DNA of 64,000 nucleotides, from assembly GCA_943704425.1 (NCBI GenBank), contig CALSCP010001313.1:1308-65307 (forward strand). The letters are read 5' to 3'. Each line of letters opens with the position of its first letter. Position 1 is the stretch's first letter. The notes beneath the pieces are model-generated. The model was not told the origin of the DNA, made no database searches, and saw nothing but the letters and a program-made list of their open reading frames with translations. The translations under genes and the position numbers were made by a program. The stretch comes from Ministeria vibrans ATCC 50519 (lineage: Eukaryota; Protista; Filasterea). This document shows positions 265 to 37,339 of the stretch, piece after piece.

Positions 265-3200
265 TCACCAGTTGGTAAACTGCGTAATGTCAACATTCCA
301 TCCGCTGGCAGCGTCACTGGCTGCTGCGGGAGACGCTTTCGATGCGGTTGGCTTGGGCGGTGGAGCCCCTCGACTTGACGACGGTTTGTTGGAAGCGTCA
401 GGTTTGGAAGGGGGCTTCTTTGGCGCCGCCTTGGACGACGATGATACTGAAGGGGTTGCCTTCGGCGTACTACTGCTCGCGGGCTTGCTTGGTCTCGAAA
501 CGGGCGCTTCGCTGCTCGACGATTTGGGCGCGGTACTCACGGGTTTCTTGGAGGGACGGGTTGGCGCGGCCGCCGGTGCCTCTGGACGATGTTTGGCGCT
601 GGGAGCGGCAGCGCGGCGTTGCTCGAGTGTCATTTTCTCCGGGGCGGGATGGACAGGAATGATGCGGGTCTCGGGGCGTGGAGGAGCGCGCGAGAGAGCC
701 GTCGGAGCGGAAGGAACGGCGGGGGGGGCAGCCCGACTGGCATTGGCTGTGGTGCCGGGTCGTGGGGCCGGGCGAGGCGTGGATGCCACAGTGGGTGAAG
801 GGGTGGTTGCCACAACTTCCGAGTAGGAACGACGCTTCTTCATCTGCTCCTTACTCTGCTTCTTGGCGGGTCGTGTTGGTACAGTCGCACTGGAACTGGC
901 AGCCGCAGTCGTACTGGAGTCGGGCGCAATGCCCATTTGAGCCCACTGCGAGGCGAGTTTGGAGGCCATGTCGTCCTCGGCGGGCGTAGGGGTGGGCGTG
1001 GGCTTGGGCTTCGGAGCAGGGCGTGGTGAATTGGCTGTGGGTACTGCTGCATCGGCGAGCATGACGCTATCAGTTCGCGGCGTGAGCGTGGGCTTGGGCC
1101 GAGATGCTGGTCGCTTGGCTGGGCGTTTGGCCACAGGTGCGCTTTGCTCTTCTGGCACAGCAGCCACTGGCTCGGGCATAGTCGGCGCCGCAGTGGCCAT
1201 GGTCAACTGGATCCACTGCCCTGCGCCATCGTAGTAACCCGTAGACCCGTCCTCTGCCGTCTGGATCCAGTTCCCCATCTCGTCGTAGTAGCCTGTCTAC
1301 AAAGCAAAAAAAGGACAATGAATAATAAAAAAAACATCGTCTCTCCCAAAAGCTCTTATACCATAAGTGCTTCAGCGTTCGCGGCGGGGTTGGCTGCGGC
1401 GGCCGATTGCTCTTCCATCCACTTCTGATACGCCTCCTCAGGTGACAGAGTGGGTTCAGCAACAGCAGCAGCAGCAACAGCAGCAGCAGCTGGAGTGGGC
1501 GCAGTGGGCGCACGACCACGCGACGTCGCTGTTCCTGCATCGCCATTGGAGTGTGACGACGGAGCCGTGGGCGCTCGTCTTCTACCGCTCTCGGCGCCTG
1601 TGCCTGCACTGGGCGCCTGAGGGGCTTCGCGTCGTTTCTTTTCAGGTGCAACAGCGGGACGTTCGGGCCCCACCTCACTCTCGACGGTGATGATGGCCTC
1701 CATGGCCACGCGCTTGAGGTAGGTGGACGGCGCCCAGCCAATTTTGTTGCGGATACGCACAAGCCACCAGCCATTGGCGTGCTTCTCCAGCACTTCCACC
1801 TCCTGGCCCTTGCCAAAAGTGATTTCGTCCTCGCGAACCCCCGTGTACTCGGCCGTCGTCATGTACTTCTCGTCCTGGTACATGCTCGGCTGCGTTGGAT
1901 CCCACACACGCCCCTGTCCATGCTCTCCACCGTCGTCCCCCTCCACATTCAGCCGCACCATCCCGTCCATCAGAGGCGGTGCGCTCTCGGCAATCTTCTT
2001 GAGAAACGTCGCAGGAGCCCAGCCCTTCTCTTCGCCCACCACAACAAACCACCAGCCATTGGGATCCTTCTCAATCACCTCCACCTCGTCGCCCTTTTCC
2101 AGCGACAGCTCTGTTTTGTTTTGTCGCTTGTAGTCTGCCACTGCCTCGTACTGCTCCAGTGCCATTGGCCCGGATACATGCATCTCCCGCCCAAACTCCT
2201 CCTCGTCGTCGTCCACCAGCGCCTGAACAAAGAAAAATGAGAATGAGAAGGGTTATTCGTATTTCTTCATTCCGTTTTTTGTTTCCTATTGTGAACACAC
2301 ACCTTTTTCACTTTGGTGACGACGCCCGAGACAGTCTCTGTGACTGACTTGGCCTCAGGCTTGCGCAGGTACTCTTCTTCTGACAGAGGATTCAGGTCCT
2401 CATCCGTCGACTCGAAAAAGGAGTGTACAAAATCGGATTGGGACACCTACACACAGAGAGAGGAGGAATAACAGGTAGTGAGAAGGGAGAACAAAGAGAG
2501 AGAGAAAGGAGGTCGAAAGAAATAAAGTGGTAGAGGGAGGGGAGAAAGAAAACAGTTACAGAGAGAGAAGGAGGAACACATACGGAGATAGATAAATTGA
2601 TAGAGTTTGAGAGAAAGAGAGAAAGAGTTTGAGAGAGTTTGAGAGAGAGAGAAAGAGTTTGAGAGAGAGAGAAAGAGTTTGAGAGAGAGAGAGACAGAGA
2701 GAAAGAGTTTGAGAGAGAGAGAGAAAGAGTTTGAGAGAGAGAAAGAGTTTGTGTGTGTGCGAGAGAGAGAAGTGATAGAGAGACAAAATGATAGTGATAA
2801 AGTGATAGAGACAAAGTGATGGTGACAAAGTGATAATAACAAAGAGAGAGAAAGAGAACAAAACGAGAATGAATAATAATATTATTTTTGGGTACGCTTT
2901 GGGGTAAGGCAAAGAGTGCGTCCAGATAGTAGGCGATTCCTTCAATTCGCGCTTCCGCCACCTTGCGCACATGCGAGCGACCAATAAGTTTCTTTCCCGG
3001 CAAGAAGGGAATCGACCGGCGACCGCCATCCGCCCCAGCTTCGACCGGGAACTTGTTGAGCAGCCCAACCTGCACATTGTGCGTATTGCGCAGCCCAGAG
3101 AGCAATAATCAAGTATTAGTCCGTTTCAAGTGAGTGAACAGTCGCATTCTCTTCGAGTGGTATCAACCAGGAGTCGGTGACGCAAGGAAAAAATCCCCAG

Positions 3201-7754: not shown

Positions 7755-9267
7755 ATGCGCGGCCAGCAATCGTCGATTGCCATTGTGTGTGCAATGTTTT
7801 TCGTTGTGTACCTGTTGTATTCCCAACCGCACTCCTCCGCACCAATCTCGCACACCGCTGATCTGGTAAACTACGGGTCCTAATACTCCCACGCAGACAC
7901 ACGCATGCACACACCGTCCATCATCCTTTTGGTCGCCTCCTTCCTCCCTTCGCGCTCCTTCGTCTGATTCTTTTTTCTTGTGTGTGTGTGTGTGTGTGTG
8001 TGCAGCCAAGAGAAGCACCGGCTGCTGTTGTAGCAGCACCGCCGCCACCCGTCGCAATACCCGTTGTCCAACCACTGCCAGTGGCTGCAGCACCTCCGGC
8101 GGCGGCAGTCGCAGCACCGGCCGGCAAGCCGGAGGAGGCGTCGTCAACAGAGCCGTCGCATTTTGTGGGCGAAACGGAAACAACGCGAGCACGTATTGCG
8201 CCCAATGCGCTGAATGGGTATCGGGGCGAGCAGAGCCAGAACCGCTGGAAAGTGATGCAGCCGGTGATGGAGAAGGAGCGAGGCGCGGGAACCATCATTG
8301 ACTATGGCGCGGCATTTGGGTTCTTCTCGATGCTTGCGGCCGACCTCAACCGCGTGACGACGCCCTGGGTGTTGAGCGTCGACGATCAGCGACAGAACCG
8401 CGGTCTTGAGTATCACAGCTCTAAGATTGCTGAGTACGAACTGCAACACTGCCTGCTGTGCAATTGCCAGTTCTCCATCCAGCTCATCGACGAGTTTGTA
8501 CGTCGCGGCGTCATGTTTCACATCCAATTTGTCCTGTCCATCTTTCACTGGCTCCCCATCCGTGACGAGGTAAGCACCAATCATTTTTATCAAAGAGAGA
8601 GATGAAACAAGGAGACTGAACGGGACTGGGTGTAGAATCATCACAAGGAGGTGCTGGGTAAGCTGCTGTCGCTGTCGCCCGTCTCGTTCATCGAACTGCC
8701 ACACCGCCTGGAAGGGCCCGGTGACCAGCGCATCTGGTACGGCAGCCGCAGAGAGCCCGAGGAGGCGATTCGGGATGCGCTGGCGGTGCACGGGGACACA
8801 GGTACAGTAGAATTCCTGGGCCAGACCATGGCCAGCTACGAGGGAGGCAAGTGCCAGCGCGACGAAATGCGCGGCAAGGTCTGCTATCGAAAGACTTTTG
8901 TCGTGCGCAACGCATCCGCACGCGCTCGCTACGACACGCAAGCTAAAGGTACACCAGAGAGAGAGAAAGGAGGGAGAAACAAAGTGACAGGAGAGAGAGA
9001 GAGAGAGAGAGGAGAAAGAAACAAAGCGATAGAGAGAGAGAGAAAGGAGGGAGAATGAAACAAAGTGATAGAGAGAGGAGGGAGAAGATGACAGATAGAT
9101 AGAGGGAGGAGGAAGGGAAAACAGTATTGCAACGGACCAGCCCACACTTGCTTTCTCGCTCATTCTCTTTTTCTCTTGTAGGAAAGGAAGCTGAGATGGC
9201 CAAGAAGGCGATTGATGTGCTCAAGTGCACTGGATCCAACCTCTTCTATGGACTCCTTCCCACCTGA
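7755..9267 (+). CDS. Type II membrane class I SAM-dependent methyltransferase (WbdD-MTase-like); exons 7755-7865, 8006-8569, 8636-8948, 9182-9267
   Basis: N-terminal signal anchor SIAIVCAMFFVVYLLY, Pro/Ala-rich stem, motif I IIDYGAAFGFFS, acidic motif II VLSVDD, VLSIFHW, SFIELP. Confidence 0.72.
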
Positions 9268-9491: not shown

Positions 9492-10460
9492 TTACGTTGC
9501 ATGGCGTGGGATGAGTGCCTCGAGATCACTGCGGTCGGGCACAGTGCCGTGCTGCGCCGAGTTCACCAGCGCCTGTACTTGCTGAGCATACTCATCAGGC
9601 GCCTTCCACAGGATCGCCTTGAGGTTTTGTCCGTAGTAGTACGTGTTGAACTCTTCGCGGTAGTTTGCGTCGGGACGGTAGTACGGCTTGCCGCGATGGT
9701 TGGCGGGGTCACCACACTTGCCTGCCTTCGATCCCATGTCCGCCAAATCGTCTACATCGCTAATCATCCACGAGCCGTCATCGCGAATTGCATAGTTTTT
9801 CGCATAGCCATCGCACAGAATGAGCTTATTGCTATTGAGAAACAAAAGTGCGTCGAGTAACAGTAGCGCCGTTTGCACCTGTGCCGGCCAGGGATCCGGC
9901 ATGCTATCCATCCAGGCGTTGTACTGGTCGGCGTGCAGTGGTCGCGTCGTTTCCAGCAGTGTTGCAAAGAGCCCTTCGCCTTCCATGCAGGATCCAACAA
10001 AGGTATACACTCGCTTTGTCCATGCGTATTTTTGCAGTGCCTCGATCGAATGGCGAAAGAACGTCTCCTTGTAGCGTGCCTGCTTCGGGCGAGACAAAGC
10101 AACGAGATGACCACCTGCCATTCCCACGGTGATCTTCTTCACGGACTGGCCGCCAAGATCGTACCAATCCTGAGCCTGATCGAGTTCAGCGCAACCCAGC
10201 ATTGTCTGTATTGCCAGAGGGGCCACTGCCGGTGGCTCTGGAGGGAAAAAAGAAGACGTCACGTCTGATACCGACGGTACAGGTGGTCCAGGCAATGGAG
10301 ATGGAGGAGGAGGAGGAGGAGGAGGTGGAGGTGGAGGTGGAGGTGGCGATACACGTGCTGGCGGGCACACTTCACACTTGAATGAAGTCGTGTACCACAC
10401 GTTGGCAAAGGTCACCACCAGGGCGAACACAACAAAGAGTAAACCGGGTCGTCGAGACAT
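9492..10460 (-). CDS. Type II membrane secretory-pathway kinase, POMK (SgK196)/PKDCC-like, single exon
   Basis: TM LLFVVFALVVTFANVWY, poly-Pro stem, LGCAEL, GGQSVKK, VALS in place of VAIK, LILCD catalytic loop, SDVDDL in place of DFG. Confidence 0.72.
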   Translation of the reverse strand: MSRRPGLLFVVFALVVTFANVWYTTSFKCEVCPPARVSPPPPPPPPPPPPPPPSPLPGPPVPSVSDVTSSFFPPEPPAVAPLAIQTMLGCAELDQAQDWYDLGGQSVKKITVGMAGGHLVALSRPKQARYKETFFRHSIEALQKYAWTKRVYTFVGSCMEGEGLFATLLETTRPLHADQYNAWMDSMPDPWPAQVQTALLLLDALLFLNSNKLILCDGYAKNYAIRDDGSWMISDVDDLADMGSKAGKCGDPANHRGKPYYRPDANYREEFNTYYYGQNLKAILWKAPDEYAQQVQALVNSAQHGTVPDRSDLEALIPRHAT

Positions 10461-10547
10461 GCAAAAAAGATATGATTAAAAAATGATCGAATCATCGAAA
10501 AATTCAAAATAATTATATTTTCAAAAAATATTCAGTCCGACATGCTC

Positions 10548-12919: not shown

Positions 12920-13249
12920 TTTTTGTTTCTTCTCGCGGGACATGCAGTAATAAAAATGAATAAAATGATTAATGATTAATGGATAATAATTTCGTTTCGA
13001 AAAAGGACAAAGCTGTATTGTCAATGGAAAGGTTTTGAACTTGGACTTCATGTCGAGTGGGAGTGGGGAGTCGAGTGGGAGTGGGGGGTCGTCGAGGGTA
13101 AAGTATCGTGCTGTTGCGACGATAACTCGTACTCCTACCACCACTGCTCCTGCCACCACCATGACGCTCCTGCGTGGCCCACCTCAAACTGCGGGATACC
13201 GTACTCTCATGGAGGATATTGACAACACCGCATCGCGCGCGCAGGAGAA

Positions 13250-13532
13250 GACTGGGGAGGACATGTCGTGATGTAAAGCCCAAGACAAGACTGGGGAGGA
13301 CATGTCGTGATGTAAAGCCCAAGACAAGACTGGGGAGGACATGTCGTGATGTAAAGCCCAAGACAAGACTGGGGAGGACATGTCGTGNNNNNNNAAGCCC
13401 AAGACAAGACTGGGGAGGACATGTCGTGATGTAAAGCCCAAGACAAGACTGGGGAGGACATGTCGTGATGAAAAGCCCAAGACAAGACTGGGGAGGACAT
13501 GTCGCTGGGGACTTGATGTAAAGCCCAAGACA
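13250..13532. repeat. Tandem repeat, 39-bp unit GACTGGGGAGGACATGTCGTGATGTAAAGCCCAAGACAA, about 7 copies, interrupted by an N gap
   Basis: Near-identical head-to-tail units without spacers; gap at 13388-13394, so the true copy number is unknown. Confidence 0.92.
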
Positions 13533-33895: not shown

Positions 33896-33989
33896 CTAGA
33901 GTCTAGGTAGTCACCAGCCAGTTTTCCCGGGCAGTTGGTTCATTGAAGGTTAAATGAAAATTTTTATTCACTTCATTTCAAATAATTCC

Positions 33990-34814
33990 ATGAATCCTAC
34001 CGATCCACCGACCTGCAGCCTGGACCCTCAGCTTCCTGATCTCAGTCAGCTGTCACTTGCAGATCCGCCACCAGTGCGGCCATCTTTGACGACGCTGTAC
34101 ACCGATTGGAGTGTCAACGTGTGCTTCGTCAAAATCACTGACGAGAAACCATTCGCGTACACCCAACAAGAGCTCAAACGCAAAGGCTGGCGTCGAAACT
34201 GCCAGGGAGGATGGAAAGACGAAAAGGGGCATGACGATACCCCTTTTACAACGGCTGCGCGTGAAGCGGCGGAAGAAATTCATGTCTCACTCGACCAGCG
34301 GAAAATTTTCGAGAAGAATGTTCACGACCGTCTGAAGCAGTGCTACTACGACGCCACACCCTGCCTATCGGTGGCACTTAAGCAGCTGGAGGACCGCAAG
34401 GGCCACATCTCGTTTCGACTGATTCTCTCAGACGACAACGTATTGGACACATTCATTCTGAAACAACTTGTGACAAAGGATGCCGGGTGTCCTGGAGTGT
34501 CGTCAGGGGGACGGCAGGAAGAGAAGACTCGTAACCTCAAGTGGGAACTGCTCGACGTCTTTGCCAATGCACGCAAACCCGACCTTCGAGTAGACGTGTC
34601 GTCCAGCGACATGAAAGACGGTGTCTGGAAGGAGACGGCGCGCTTCCGTCGAACCGATCTGCCTCCAAAGTCGGCAGTGTTCTCCTCGACGAGCGCTATT
34701 GCGGCACAACGACCCCATACTCCAAGATCTGGTTGTGCATCCGCAGCAGACGCTTCTGCAACTGCCAGTAGGTCGAGCACCTCTGCCCAGAAGAAATGGA
34801 AGGGAAGAAAATAA
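33990..34814 (+). CDS. Nudix-hydrolase-like protein, intronless
   Basis: Nudix-box-like GGWKDEKGHDDTPFTTAAREAAEEIHV. Confidence 0.65.
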   Translation: MNPTDPPTCSLDPQLPDLSQLSLADPPPVRPSLTTLYTDWSVNVCFVKITDEKPFAYTQQELKRKGWRRNCQGGWKDEKGHDDTPFTTAAREAAEEIHVSLDQRKIFEKNVHDRLKQCYYDATPCLSVALKQLEDRKGHISFRLILSDDNVLDTFILKQLVTKDAGCPGVSSGGRQEEKTRNLKWELLDVFANARKPDLRVDVSSSDMKDGVWKETARFRRTDLPPKSAVFSSTSAIAAQRPHTPRSGCASAADASATASRSSTSAQKKWKGRK

Positions 34815-34852
34815 AGCGATTACAATATTTATTTTTTGTACTGTTTCAGTTT

Positions 34853-37339
34853 TCATTGCGGGTCCTGACCGACATTCCACACCAGGTCACCTGCACGCGC
34901 CTGACGGCAAAAAAACTGCCAAAGTTTGGCGTCGTAAGAGCGGACGGTTGCATAGGCGGGTTGGGCACGGGCGTCGTCGGTGAAGCGCTCGGGAGCAACA
35001 AGTAGACGGTAGCGGCCACGCAGCTCGGTGAGGTTCTCCTCGCGTATAGTACGGCCCACCTGGACCAAGACGAATTGAGCGTTGGGGAAGACACGCCCAA
35101 GCGCCCGCGATAGGGCACCAGAGCCGGCAGTCACCCAGACGCGCGCCGGTGGCTGAGAGCGCAGTCGCTCGGGTAGCGCCGCGGATATGGCAGTAGCAAG
35201 GGCAGCGACAAAGACTTCAGCATCAAGGCCAAAGGGCAGAAGAGCGCCCACACAGTCGTGGCGGTGCGCATAGAGCTCACTGGTCGCCTGGACGCGTTTC
35301 AGCGTGCCGCTGCGCCCCCGCGCATCGCTCACACTGTGTACATATCCGCCCGCGTCGACAGAGAGCTGTGTAAGGCGATGCAGAGGCGAGTGCTTCTCGA
35401 CAAACACGGTCGCCCGAAAGCCGTACACTCCACCGGCAACGGCAAGCGCTACCTGTGCAAAACCGTGGGCAGGGCCGGCGTAGATGAGTTCACGTACGGA
35501 CCCAAGGTTCATTGCCGACAATGCCCGCTGCTTGGTTCCGCCTGGCAGCACTCCGTCCTGCACCAACAAAAAGGGCACATCGCCAACGCGGTGCTCCTCC
35601 ACGCGCAGCTCAGGGTTCAGCTCCCCCGGCGTCTTCGGCAGCCCAACGTGTCCTGTCCACGTCTTACCACTGTTCTGCAGTGTCTCACGCTGAGGCTTGG
35701 ACTTGTGGCCAAGCTCCGTCTGACGTTTGCCCGTCTCGACATCGTCAGCATCGTGGTGTCGTTGCCGTTTGCTCGCTACGACGTCGTCTGTGTCGGAAAG
35801 TCGTCGCTTGCGGCTGGTTTGCGCCGCTGTGAAACTCGCCTGTTCAACCACCATGGTGCATGTTCGCATGTCGTAATACTCAGCGACTTGTCGTACAAAG
35901 GCCGCCGCATGCGTATCCAGTGCCTCAATAGCACGCAAACGTGTTGTCCCCACTGTAGCAGCCCCGCCATCCTGCTTGCGCCAGATAGCAGACGTGCGTG
36001 GGCGACCGTTCTTGGTACAGCCGGTGACAATGCGCACGAGGCATGAGCCCGGCAGTCCAGCCATTCCCGCTAGCAGCAGTGTGTCGGGCGCACCTATTTC
36101 GGCGCGCTCGTCCCACTCGAGCACAAGATGCCCACCGTCAACAACCATCTTCCACGCGTGTAGTATCTCCGTCACAAAGAGATGCACAAGCCAGAAGGAA
36201 CTCTCGTCGGCATTCGACCACGACGACCGACCTCCCGGGGCTGCTTCGGGCACATTCAGCAGGGCCACGTCAACATGCTCGTCCAAGCGCGGTACATGAG
36301 CAGACAAGCGCGAGTAAGACACGCGAAAGTTACAAGCATTCGTGCCCAGATCCGCCAACAGGCGCTCGTGTCCCGGTCGCCAGCGGGTGTCGTTGCAGAA
36401 GGCTGTGATTCGGGAGGCTTTCAAAGCCGCGGCAGCCACAAGGACACTGCCGCTGCCCACGTTGCCCACGAGCAAGTGCTCCACATGATCGTGGCCTTGC
36501 CGACAAAGAGGCGCCATAACCGCCTCGTAGAATGACGCTTGCTCCGTCGTCCAGGGCATGTCGTGAGCCCGCAAAATCTCTTGCTTGACGAGTTCGTGGA
36601 GGTGCTCGCCGTTGCCGTGAGTATTGTTGGTCTCGAGACGCGTCAGTGCGGCACACACAGCAGCAGTGAGTTCGGTGCTCGAGGCGCGCCACAGCGTGTT
36701 CGCCGGTGCCGGTCCCCCGCGTGTGGTCTTCGCCACGTCAAAACGAGCAGACTCCTGGTAGCCGTCGAGAAGCATATCGAGTGAGGTTTCCTGCAGCCGC
36801 GGCGGTATGCTGAACAACAAGACGCCAAGAGGCAGAGCTGCTAAGGTAAAGGGCTGGAGCGGTAGACTCTTGGCGGCTGTCGCAGAATCAGTTTGAGCTT
36901 CGAGTGCATTCGCGGCGACCGCGGCGCGTCCCGAGAGCGTCTCAACGTCGAGTCTTTCAGCTTGCGCGACCGGAAACGAAGCGTCGCCCAACAAGAGTGC
37001 CTCTAGAAGCGGCGTGACGTACGCCTGAGTCGCTCCATTGCACAAGGACTTCAGCTGTTGCGCGTCACTCTGGCGCAGCGGGCGATGGTCGGCGACCCCC
37101 AAAGCGGCGACGCCGATGCGTACAATGTCCATCTGAAGCCGTTGGCGGCCGCCTGCGCTCGCACTCACGAGGGGCGGCGCTGTCTTGGCCAGATGTGCCA
37201 GGATCGGCCACAGTTGCTCCATACTCTCACATCGACCAACCGCGTCGCGTTGCTCGGTAAACAGACTGGCCAGTTTCGGTACACTGACCATGTCCTTCAC
37301 GCAGCGATCCAGCTCGCCGATAGCCCTGGCCAGTTGCAT
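34853..37339 (-). CDS. Intronless fusion: degenerate SAM-methyltransferase fold + NLS linker + fold-type II PLP-dependent enzyme
   Basis: MTase-like LLVGNVGSGSVLVAAAAL / DVALLNVP / AWKMVVDGGHLVL / AIWRK; PLP domain QDGVLPGGTKQR (Schiff-base Lys at 35531-35533), YAGPAHGFAQVALA, LLPFGL, WVTAGSG, SYDAKLW, WNVG. Confidence 0.75.
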   Translation of the reverse strand: MQLARAIGELDRCVKDMVSVPKLASLFTEQRDAVGRCESMEQLWPILAHLAKTAPPLVSASAGGRQRLQMDIVRIGVAALGVADHRPLRQSDAQQLKSLCNGATQAYVTPLLEALLLGDASFPVAQAERLDVETLSGRAAVAANALEAQTDSATAAKSLPLQPFTLAALPLGVLLFSIPPRLQETSLDMLLDGYQESARFDVAKTTRGGPAPANTLWRASSTELTAAVCAALTRLETNNTHGNGEHLHELVKQEILRAHDMPWTTEQASFYEAVMAPLCRQGHDHVEHLLVGNVGSGSVLVAAAALKASRITAFCNDTRWRPGHERLLADLGTNACNFRVSYSRLSAHVPRLDEHVDVALLNVPEAAPGGRSSWSNADESSFWLVHLFVTEILHAWKMVVDGGHLVLEWDERAEIGAPDTLLLAGMAGLPGSCLVRIVTGCTKNGRPRTSAIWRKQDGGAATVGTTRLRAIEALDTHAAAFVRQVAEYYDMRTCTMVVEQASFTAAQTSRKRRLSDTDDVVASKRQRHHDADDVETGKRQTELGHKSKPQRETLQNSGKTWTGHVGLPKTPGELNPELRVEEHRVGDVPFLLVQDGVLPGGTKQRALSAMNLGSVRELIYAGPAHGFAQVALAVAGGVYGFRATVFVEKHSPLHRLTQLSVDAGGYVHSVSDARGRSGTLKRVQATSELYAHRHDCVGALLPFGLDAEVFVAALATAISAALPERLRSQPPARVWVTAGSGALSRALGRVFPNAQFVLVQVGRTIREENLTELRGRYRLLVAPERFTDDARAQPAYATVRSYDAKLWQFFCRQARAGDLVWNVGQDPQ

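Follow-up and report, generated by a model that had tools for sequence, protein, structure and literature searches.

The 64,000-nucleotide stretch of the Ministeria vibrans ATCC 50519 genome analyzed here (contig CALSCP010001313.1, hereafter the window) contains, at 34853-37339 on the minus strand, an open reading frame (ORF) of 828 residues with no internal stops, which is a real, transcribed protist gene. The encoded protein couples two unequal parts: a degenerate amino-methyltransferase (MTase) domain, most likely a pseudo-enzyme and not a new transferase, and a pyridoxal 5′-phosphate (PLP) domain, likely an active enzyme of the type of gp52 from Pseudomonas phage M6. Our preferred reading, held tentatively and at somewhat less than even confidence, is that the PLP domain of this host gene trims an amino-acid-like group linked to a base while the dead MTase fold binds the substrate or a partner.

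M6 gp52 and gp226 of Salmonella phage ViI are PLP-dependent decarboxylases of thymidine hypermodification; gp52 is proven to decarboxylate amino acid-base adducts, requires a free α-amine and carries its lysine at position 36, as described in passages of PMC8989533. The initial annotation of the locus, made from the sequence alone, had assigned the C-terminal domain to this phage type rather than to a metabolic one, and profile comparisons bear this out. The phrog_7093 profile matches residues 579–824 of the target with 59 bits (E = 9e-16), the M6 ORF fitting gp52 (lysine at 36) scoring 530 bits on the same profile, and hhalign comparison of a 44-relative profile with gp52 gives a probability of 98.3% over 238 columns, in which Lys603 falls on Lys36. 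The two proteins thus share a fold-type II PLP domain, an aligned lysine and the C-terminal YD.K.W..WN motif common to the target family and gp52, and differ in sequence, being only 21% identical by profile. Lys603 is invariant across 49 sequences, and the target retains 47 of the 51 family-conserved columns, or 38 of 41 in a second column set. The motifs GGTK (residue 600), GFAQVALA (626), AGSG (738), YDAK (802) and WNV (821) lie where the initial annotation had placed them, as do VGNVGSG, NVPE and RKRR-x10-KRQR in the preceding regions. In the ESM Atlas the domain reaches 0.95 to viral PLP clusters, and its family is large, with 955 representatives at E ≤ 0.001. No PLP-profile match was found in the ViI stretch 110000-157061; the likeness is drawn from gp52.

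A PLP enzyme of ordinary metabolism, such as those of the 1-aminocyclopropane-1-carboxylate (ACC) deaminase, dehydratase or D-cysteine desulfhydrase type, or else the decaying remains of an inserted viral gene, would account for the weak similarity to Pfam PALP (16 bits, cut-off 35), for the PDB profile matches to serine dehydratase (29 bits) and to ACC deaminase/D-cysteine desulfhydrase (27 bits) and for the long branch of the target in the trees. This is nonetheless very unlikely. The PDB matches are limited to the N-terminal part of the domain, reaching no further than position 190 in a profile of 253, and lie far below the 282 bits of its own family, and no NCBIfam metabolic family matches at E ≤ 1; the metabolic grouping that the initial annotation had named as telling against it is not what is found, no metabolic match exceeding 29 bits. 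Moreover, the ORF is intact and transcribed, its GC content at third codon positions (0.66) is within the range of its neighbors (0.58–0.75), and no viral-type gene is present among the 62 window ORFs scanned.

The middle region adopts, as had been proposed, a giant-virus-type amino-MTase fold. A hidden Markov model (HMM) built without the target scores it at 14.9 bits, compared with a maximum of 0.6 for 300 shuffles and −3.6 for the reversed sequence, and hhalign aligns residues 185–457 with a probability of 91.9% (E = 7e-7). The fold model of the domain (pLDDT 74, pTM 0.79) has its best viral matches in Satyrvirus and Pithovirus proteins, with TM scores of 0.59–0.65 over ∼390 columns, and superimposes onto class I MTases of the PDB (VIA) with Z up to 15.6 and an rmsd of 2.8 for 184 aligned residues, many of these matches being tied. 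In the ESM Atlas, residues 1–470 are best placed, as a lead only, with viral N6_N4_Mtase clusters (0.84). An MTase-like region is thus present, the lack of which had been named as contradicting the initial annotation, and its extent was probably underestimated: homology is suggested back to about residue 115 (36997), beyond the limit of 36790 first given. None of the known aminocarboxypropyl (acp) transferases TYW2, Tsr3 and TapT is among the structure matches listed. The whole-domain matches also include a 699-residue Satyrvirus protein labeled glutathione synthase, perhaps an MTase-ligase fusion, and an uncharacterized Salmon gill poxvirus protein. Modeled in full by AlphaFold from its single sequence, the protein reached a pLDDT of 36, and this model was not used for fold searches.

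The fold is retained while its active site has decayed. The target keeps 13 of 29 conserved MTase columns and each of 52 intact references at least 24, the columns having been defined from these same references. The losses comprise the motif I Asp, the Trp, Asp and Arg that follow it, the motif II Asp, the Ser-Pro of motif IV and the E.Y loop; the Asp of motif II (DPN) contacts the ribose of S-adenosylmethionine (SAM). A similar decay is seen in seven other homologues, spread over several branches, which keep 8–19 of the 29 MTase columns and 37–41 of 41 PLP columns, suggesting that catalysis was lost repeatedly across the family with the fold retained. The loss of SAM-binding and catalytic residues, the retention of the fold and the recurrence of the decay together lead us to the pseudo-enzyme reading, and the target shows that the PLP step can outlast the loss of a fused writer. 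One degenerate relative, the P0040 cluster (15 members, on contigs of up to 74 kb), is a second protein that looks GC-rich and has the reverse domain order: an intact PLP domain, a helical spacer and a degenerate MTase, with a basic motif at the C terminus.

That the altered MTase of the target is itself active and transfers a non-methyl group, which its own PLP domain then decarboxylates, seems improbable. The full-length fold is colinear with that of the family at ∼20% identity, and the GxG turn and the N-x-P of motif IV are kept, the latter being found also in the degenerate member P0018. Against this stand the loss of both SAM-binding aspartates together with the other residues listed above, and the singularity of this set of changes, each degenerate member decaying differently. 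The new transferase chemistry read from these motifs in the initial annotation does not hold, as the changes strike family-invariant residues and none of the eight other degenerate or variant members aligned has also lost its motif I Asp; the binding module, its other option, is likelier. METTL14 is a pseudo-methyltransferase subunit, and the target would resemble it, by analogy only, in a kept fold, a lost SAM pocket and a likely role in substrate or partner binding.

The amino-MTase family in question, uncharacterized and recognizable by its D.SAGWGDR and SPP[YF] motifs, is found in phages, giant viruses and protists, fused to the PLP domain or next to it. The arrangements are varied: either domain order, adjacent genes, or a PLP domain inserted within the MTase, as in Erythrobacter phages, where it interrupts a ParB-MTase after motif I and before motif IV. 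Fusions from Salpingoeca rosetta (PTSG_07789), Cafeteria (FNF29_03028), giant viruses and Erythrobacter phages (ZS04 gp7 and R6L gp1) have the same two domains as the target, an MTase region colinear with it throughout and a PLP domain 31–47% identical; the target differs from them by its lost SAM-binding and catalytic residues and by an extra N-terminal helical region. Intact pairs are present in three cultured phages, ZS04, R6L and Mae-JY30. An MTase is found in 28 of 31 viral loci retrieved by PLP-only patterns, mostly from one T4-like group, and in 47 of 80 in a wider scan (4 fused, 40 within 2 kb and 3 further away), a figure biased upward because the MTase pattern was also used in that search. 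The T4-like loci carry an additional Asp-β-hydroxylase-like gene, and MTase, Asp-β-hydroxylase-like and PLP parts are joined in single proteins at L145:1810-5049 and L147:3421-6675. gp52 and gp226 are coupled instead to 5-hydroxymethyluracil (5-hmU) kinase and aGPT-Pplase, neither of which was detected by a Pfam scan of the 62 ORFs of the window. At another locus (L101:4676-8242), a Mom-family gene (94 bits) comes after the MTase and PLP genes. A PLP subgroup of ∼300 residues, without MTase, lies among unannotated genes of 300–400 residues (L061, L068, L086, L100, L102, L106, L110, L113 and L115), with a thymidylate-synthase-like neighbor in two cases; it is possibly another undescribed pyrimidine hypermodification cluster.

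What the pair would do is suggested by RNA chemistry. TYW2, Tsr3 and TapT transfer acp from SAM to RNA bases and the arm can be tailored further, the TYW2 step preceding that of TYW5, as set out in parts of PMC7694415. The Asp-β-hydroxylase-like gene of the T4-like loci echoes the succession of TYW2 and TYW5, while the MTase-PLP family differs from these transferases by its amine-type motif IV. TYW2 is itself a class I MTase in its fold, and PLP is not known to take part in the TYW2, Tsr3 or TapT routes. For the intact family we infer an acp transfer from SAM followed by a PLP-dependent decarboxylation, since a methyl group gives PLP nothing to act on and acp does; likewise, the free α-amine needed by gp52 could be supplied by a SAM enzyme only via an acp arm. 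The acp idea of the initial annotation is therefore better suited to intact members than to the target. In M. vibrans the acp step would fall to a separately encoded intact enzyme; the PLP domain of the target, probably a decarboxylase, would then trim the group on the nucleobase, its MTase-like domain would be kept for binding, and the nucleus would be the site of action. A prediction of the complex between the two domains, run without alignments, scored 0.00, which is not evidence either way.

With less confidence still, we propose that a writer-plus-tailor system is common to giant viruses and diverse protists, among them the choanoflagellates, which are relatives of animals. In it, SAM-derived acp placed on a base amine would be decarboxylated to a positively charged aminopropyl base, at mRNA 5′ ends or in nuclear DNA, the target being a specialized subunit whose dead MTase either reads this mark or associates with a writer that is active. 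The intact versions, known from giant viruses, choanoflagellates and other protists, likely make an undescribed RNA or DNA mark larger than a methyl group.

Several points weigh against our preferred reading. Pairwise BLAST between the target and gp52 is not significant (E = 0.11), so that the link rests on profiles and makes the two families distant sister groups. The MTase-like model is partly circular, as the family alignment was used as its input, and no characterized family member was found in the literature searched. Fold-type II PLP enzymes mostly perform elimination or replacement, and a γ-elimination, which would make the PLP domain an eraser, is possible. Finally, of 166 homologues classified for their MTase, 51 have an intact GWGDR/SPP[YF] type, 8 a ParB type and 19 another match, and 88 have none; similarly, 33 of the 80 viral loci lack a nearby MTase. 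The PLP domain thus also works in other settings.

In another reading, the PLP domain is independent of the family MTase and acts, as a decarboxylase or γ-lyase, on existing eukaryotic acp groups or on SAM. Such groups are available in eukaryotes as acp3U in tRNA, m1acp3-pseudouridine in 18S rRNA and wybutosine intermediates, according to sections of PMC7694415. PLP proteins without MTase occur in Monosiga, Didymoeca, Protostelium and Planoprotostelium and in one EukProt protein, and the fused MTase has decayed repeatedly. We consider this alternative unlikely in view of the intact fusions of S. rosetta, Cafeteria and an MMETSP transcript and of the degenerate domain of the target, which retains its length and fold.

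The nature of the substrate is suggested by additional domains. The scan for them covered 91 homologues, 70 chosen for their length; cap enzymes are the fusion partner in 10 (6 PCIF1, 2 TGS1-like and 2 VP39-like), and P0042, P0120, P0130 and P0166 are triple fusions of cap enzyme, intact MTase and PLP domain. Other fusions involve WW (5), CCCH (2), XRN (1) and XTBD (1) domains, several of the WW, CCCH and XTBD matches being below the curated cut-off, and RNA-polymerase-subunit fusions are also present in the eukaryote/giant-virus clade. PCIF1 and CMTR1 are linked with RNA polymerase II through their WW domains. The repeated cap-enzyme fusions in this clade make RNA at least as likely as DNA, and a DNA substrate is not confirmed, these fusions pointing as much to RNA. 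On these domain architectures RNA, plausibly at mRNA 5′ ends, would be slightly ahead for the clade; in our own estimate it is a little better than an even proposition, DNA appreciably less probable and any other substrate improbable. Two points count against RNA: the phage relatives, with their ParB fusion and terminase neighbor, point to DNA, and giant-virus gene fusions can be promiscuous.

The same enzyme pair could instead act on nuclear DNA, giving a hypermodified base for which the dead MTase would be a DNA reader or base-flipper. Base J of kinetoplastids is a precedent for such a base. The phage architectures just mentioned fit this alternative, as do the putative nuclear localization signal (NLS) of the linker, a PTM/DIR17-like Tudor domain on one eukaryotic homologue and the DNA-MTase names borne by the best viral structure matches; gp52 itself acts on DNA, as stated in part of PMC8989533. 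However, these names are automatic, and the extra domains that recur in the eukaryote/giant-virus clade (91/98 support) are cap enzymes and domains linked to RNA, and we regard nuclear DNA as a somewhat unlikely substrate of the pair. The NLS-like motif separates the target, on a eukaryotic chromosome, from gp52 and gp226, which are phage proteins. Its strict bipartite pattern, written after the motif was seen, occurs in 0.02% of 5000 shuffles and a loose textbook pattern in 12%.

The origin of the gene was examined with two trees, a FastTree tree of 176 rows and an IQ-TREE tree of a hand-picked 49-row subset whose bootstrap had not settled. In the latter, 40 non-phage rows, comprising all named eukaryotes and the giant-virus-like sequences, lie on one side of a branch supported at 91/98, and the target forms the deepest, long branch (88/67) of this mixed clade. 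As the two trees place the target differently and never strongly, no donor is claimed; a phage ancestry of the family would be compatible with the IQ-TREE tree. A source was looked up for 29 homologues, selected in part for a eukaryotic appearance; it is eukaryotic for 8 of them, with at least six named protist species. The virus-derived, domesticated gene of the initial annotation thus finds no donor in the tree, its family is spread over these protists and its flanks are host genes. No close orthologue of the target was found in JGI metagenome contigs, where 79 loci are distant relatives of the PLP domain (26–42% identity over matches of at least 100 residues), and no homologue closely matches the whole protein; a word-based search with the whole protein and a search with alignment A1 gave no return, which is not evidence of absence.

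In the literature found, PLP tailoring of base-linked amino acids is proven for phage DNA only. No description of the MTase-PLP pair was found in full-text searches, although a 2013 paper by Iyer et al. (NAR) on systems that modify DNA bases, or supplementary material, may list the association. Term look-ups found no mention of PLP in the parts covered of PMC4738411, PMC7253447 and PMC7824862, and a sole, unrelated mention in those of PMC12700378 and PMC11245014. The kind of chemistry is already known; the new part is the nuclear protist branch with intact members. If our reading is true, a conserved pair of MTase fold and PLP domain in protist chromosomes would mean that eukaryotes have a nucleic-acid modification not yet described, and that the amino-methyltransferase fold has been put to a new use. 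S. rosetta is cultured and gene-editing methods exist for it, so that the intact PTSG_07789 makes the question testable; the target, as a degenerate member, is a poorer starting point than such intact copies.

The features of the gene are collected in Table 1. The intronless ORF of about 828 residues reported initially was confirmed by reading of the frame and by a contig of run X6, which is identical and ungapped across 34017-37210 and spliced at the GT-AG introns of the flanking genes; short fragments of the ORF are also seen in runs X17 and X18. As the X6 contig spans three genes, it establishes that the gene is transcribed and lacks introns but does not bear on strand or level. None of the listed runs that contain the sequence is registered as RNA, and the claim of expression rests on these spliced contigs, whose depth cannot rank genes. 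The intronless state is not odd here, since in the neighboring BRR2 gene the first intron-like repeat comes after an open stretch of ∼570 codons. The N-terminal region gave no homologue (residues 1–114) and no match to the helical spacers of five homologues (residues 1–150).

Table 1. Features of the MTase-PLP gene, with positions in the window.
Feature	Residues	Position	Strand	Basis
Whole ORF, intronless, transcribed	828 residues	34853..37339	-	ORF reading, spliced-RNA contigs
N-terminal region, predicted helical	1-114	36998..37339	-	Low-confidence single-sequence model
Degenerate amino-methyltransferase domain: family N-terminal extension and class I Rossmann core (about 285-457)	about 115-457	35969..36997	-	HMM, alignment, model, Foldseek, VIA
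Motif I remnant VGNVGSG (family D.SAGWGDR; Asp, Trp, Asp, Arg lost)	291	36449..36469	-	Alignment
Cys at motif II slot (family Asp, DPN; here CND)	315	36395..36397	-	Register fixed by AF...PGH
Motif IV remnant NVPE (family SPP[YF]); F.xE.Y loop after motif IV missing	362	36245..36256	-	Alignment
Bipartite NLS-like motif RKRR-x10-KRQR, in low-confidence linker (458-569)	510-527	35759..35812	-	Pattern
PLP fold-type II domain, M6 gp52-related (phrog_7093), catalytic residues intact	570-828	34856..35632	-	Profiles, conserved columns
Candidate for the Schiff-base lysine, opposite Lys36 of M6 gp52	603	35531..35533	-	Profile alignment

The gene is flanked tail-to-tail by a NUDIX-like gene and head-to-head by HAUS1, with BRR2 and a protein kinase nearby, and the other ORFs of the window are ordinary eukaryotic genes; no Rfam match was obtained within it. 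The NUDIX-like gene, spliced and located at 33954-34814 on the plus strand (Pfam 17 bits, below the cut-off), ends 38 bases from the stop of the target and shares an RNA contig with it, a linkage that may be due to chance. Further away, a 39-bp tandem repeat of 6.5 copies occupies 13248-13504, with 93% matches and one N gap, just upstream of a transketolase gene. Two ORFs, 7862-8605 (plus) and 9492-10475 (minus), have no Pfam match at E ≤ 1e-4; by eye, one of them has a SAM-binding-like DYGAAFG motif and the other is a membrane-anchored kinase-like protein. Finally, the ORF at 268-3108 on the minus strand encodes a multi-SH3 protein with two SH3 domains within one exon and a proline-rich tail, which we take to resemble NADPH-oxidase organizers.

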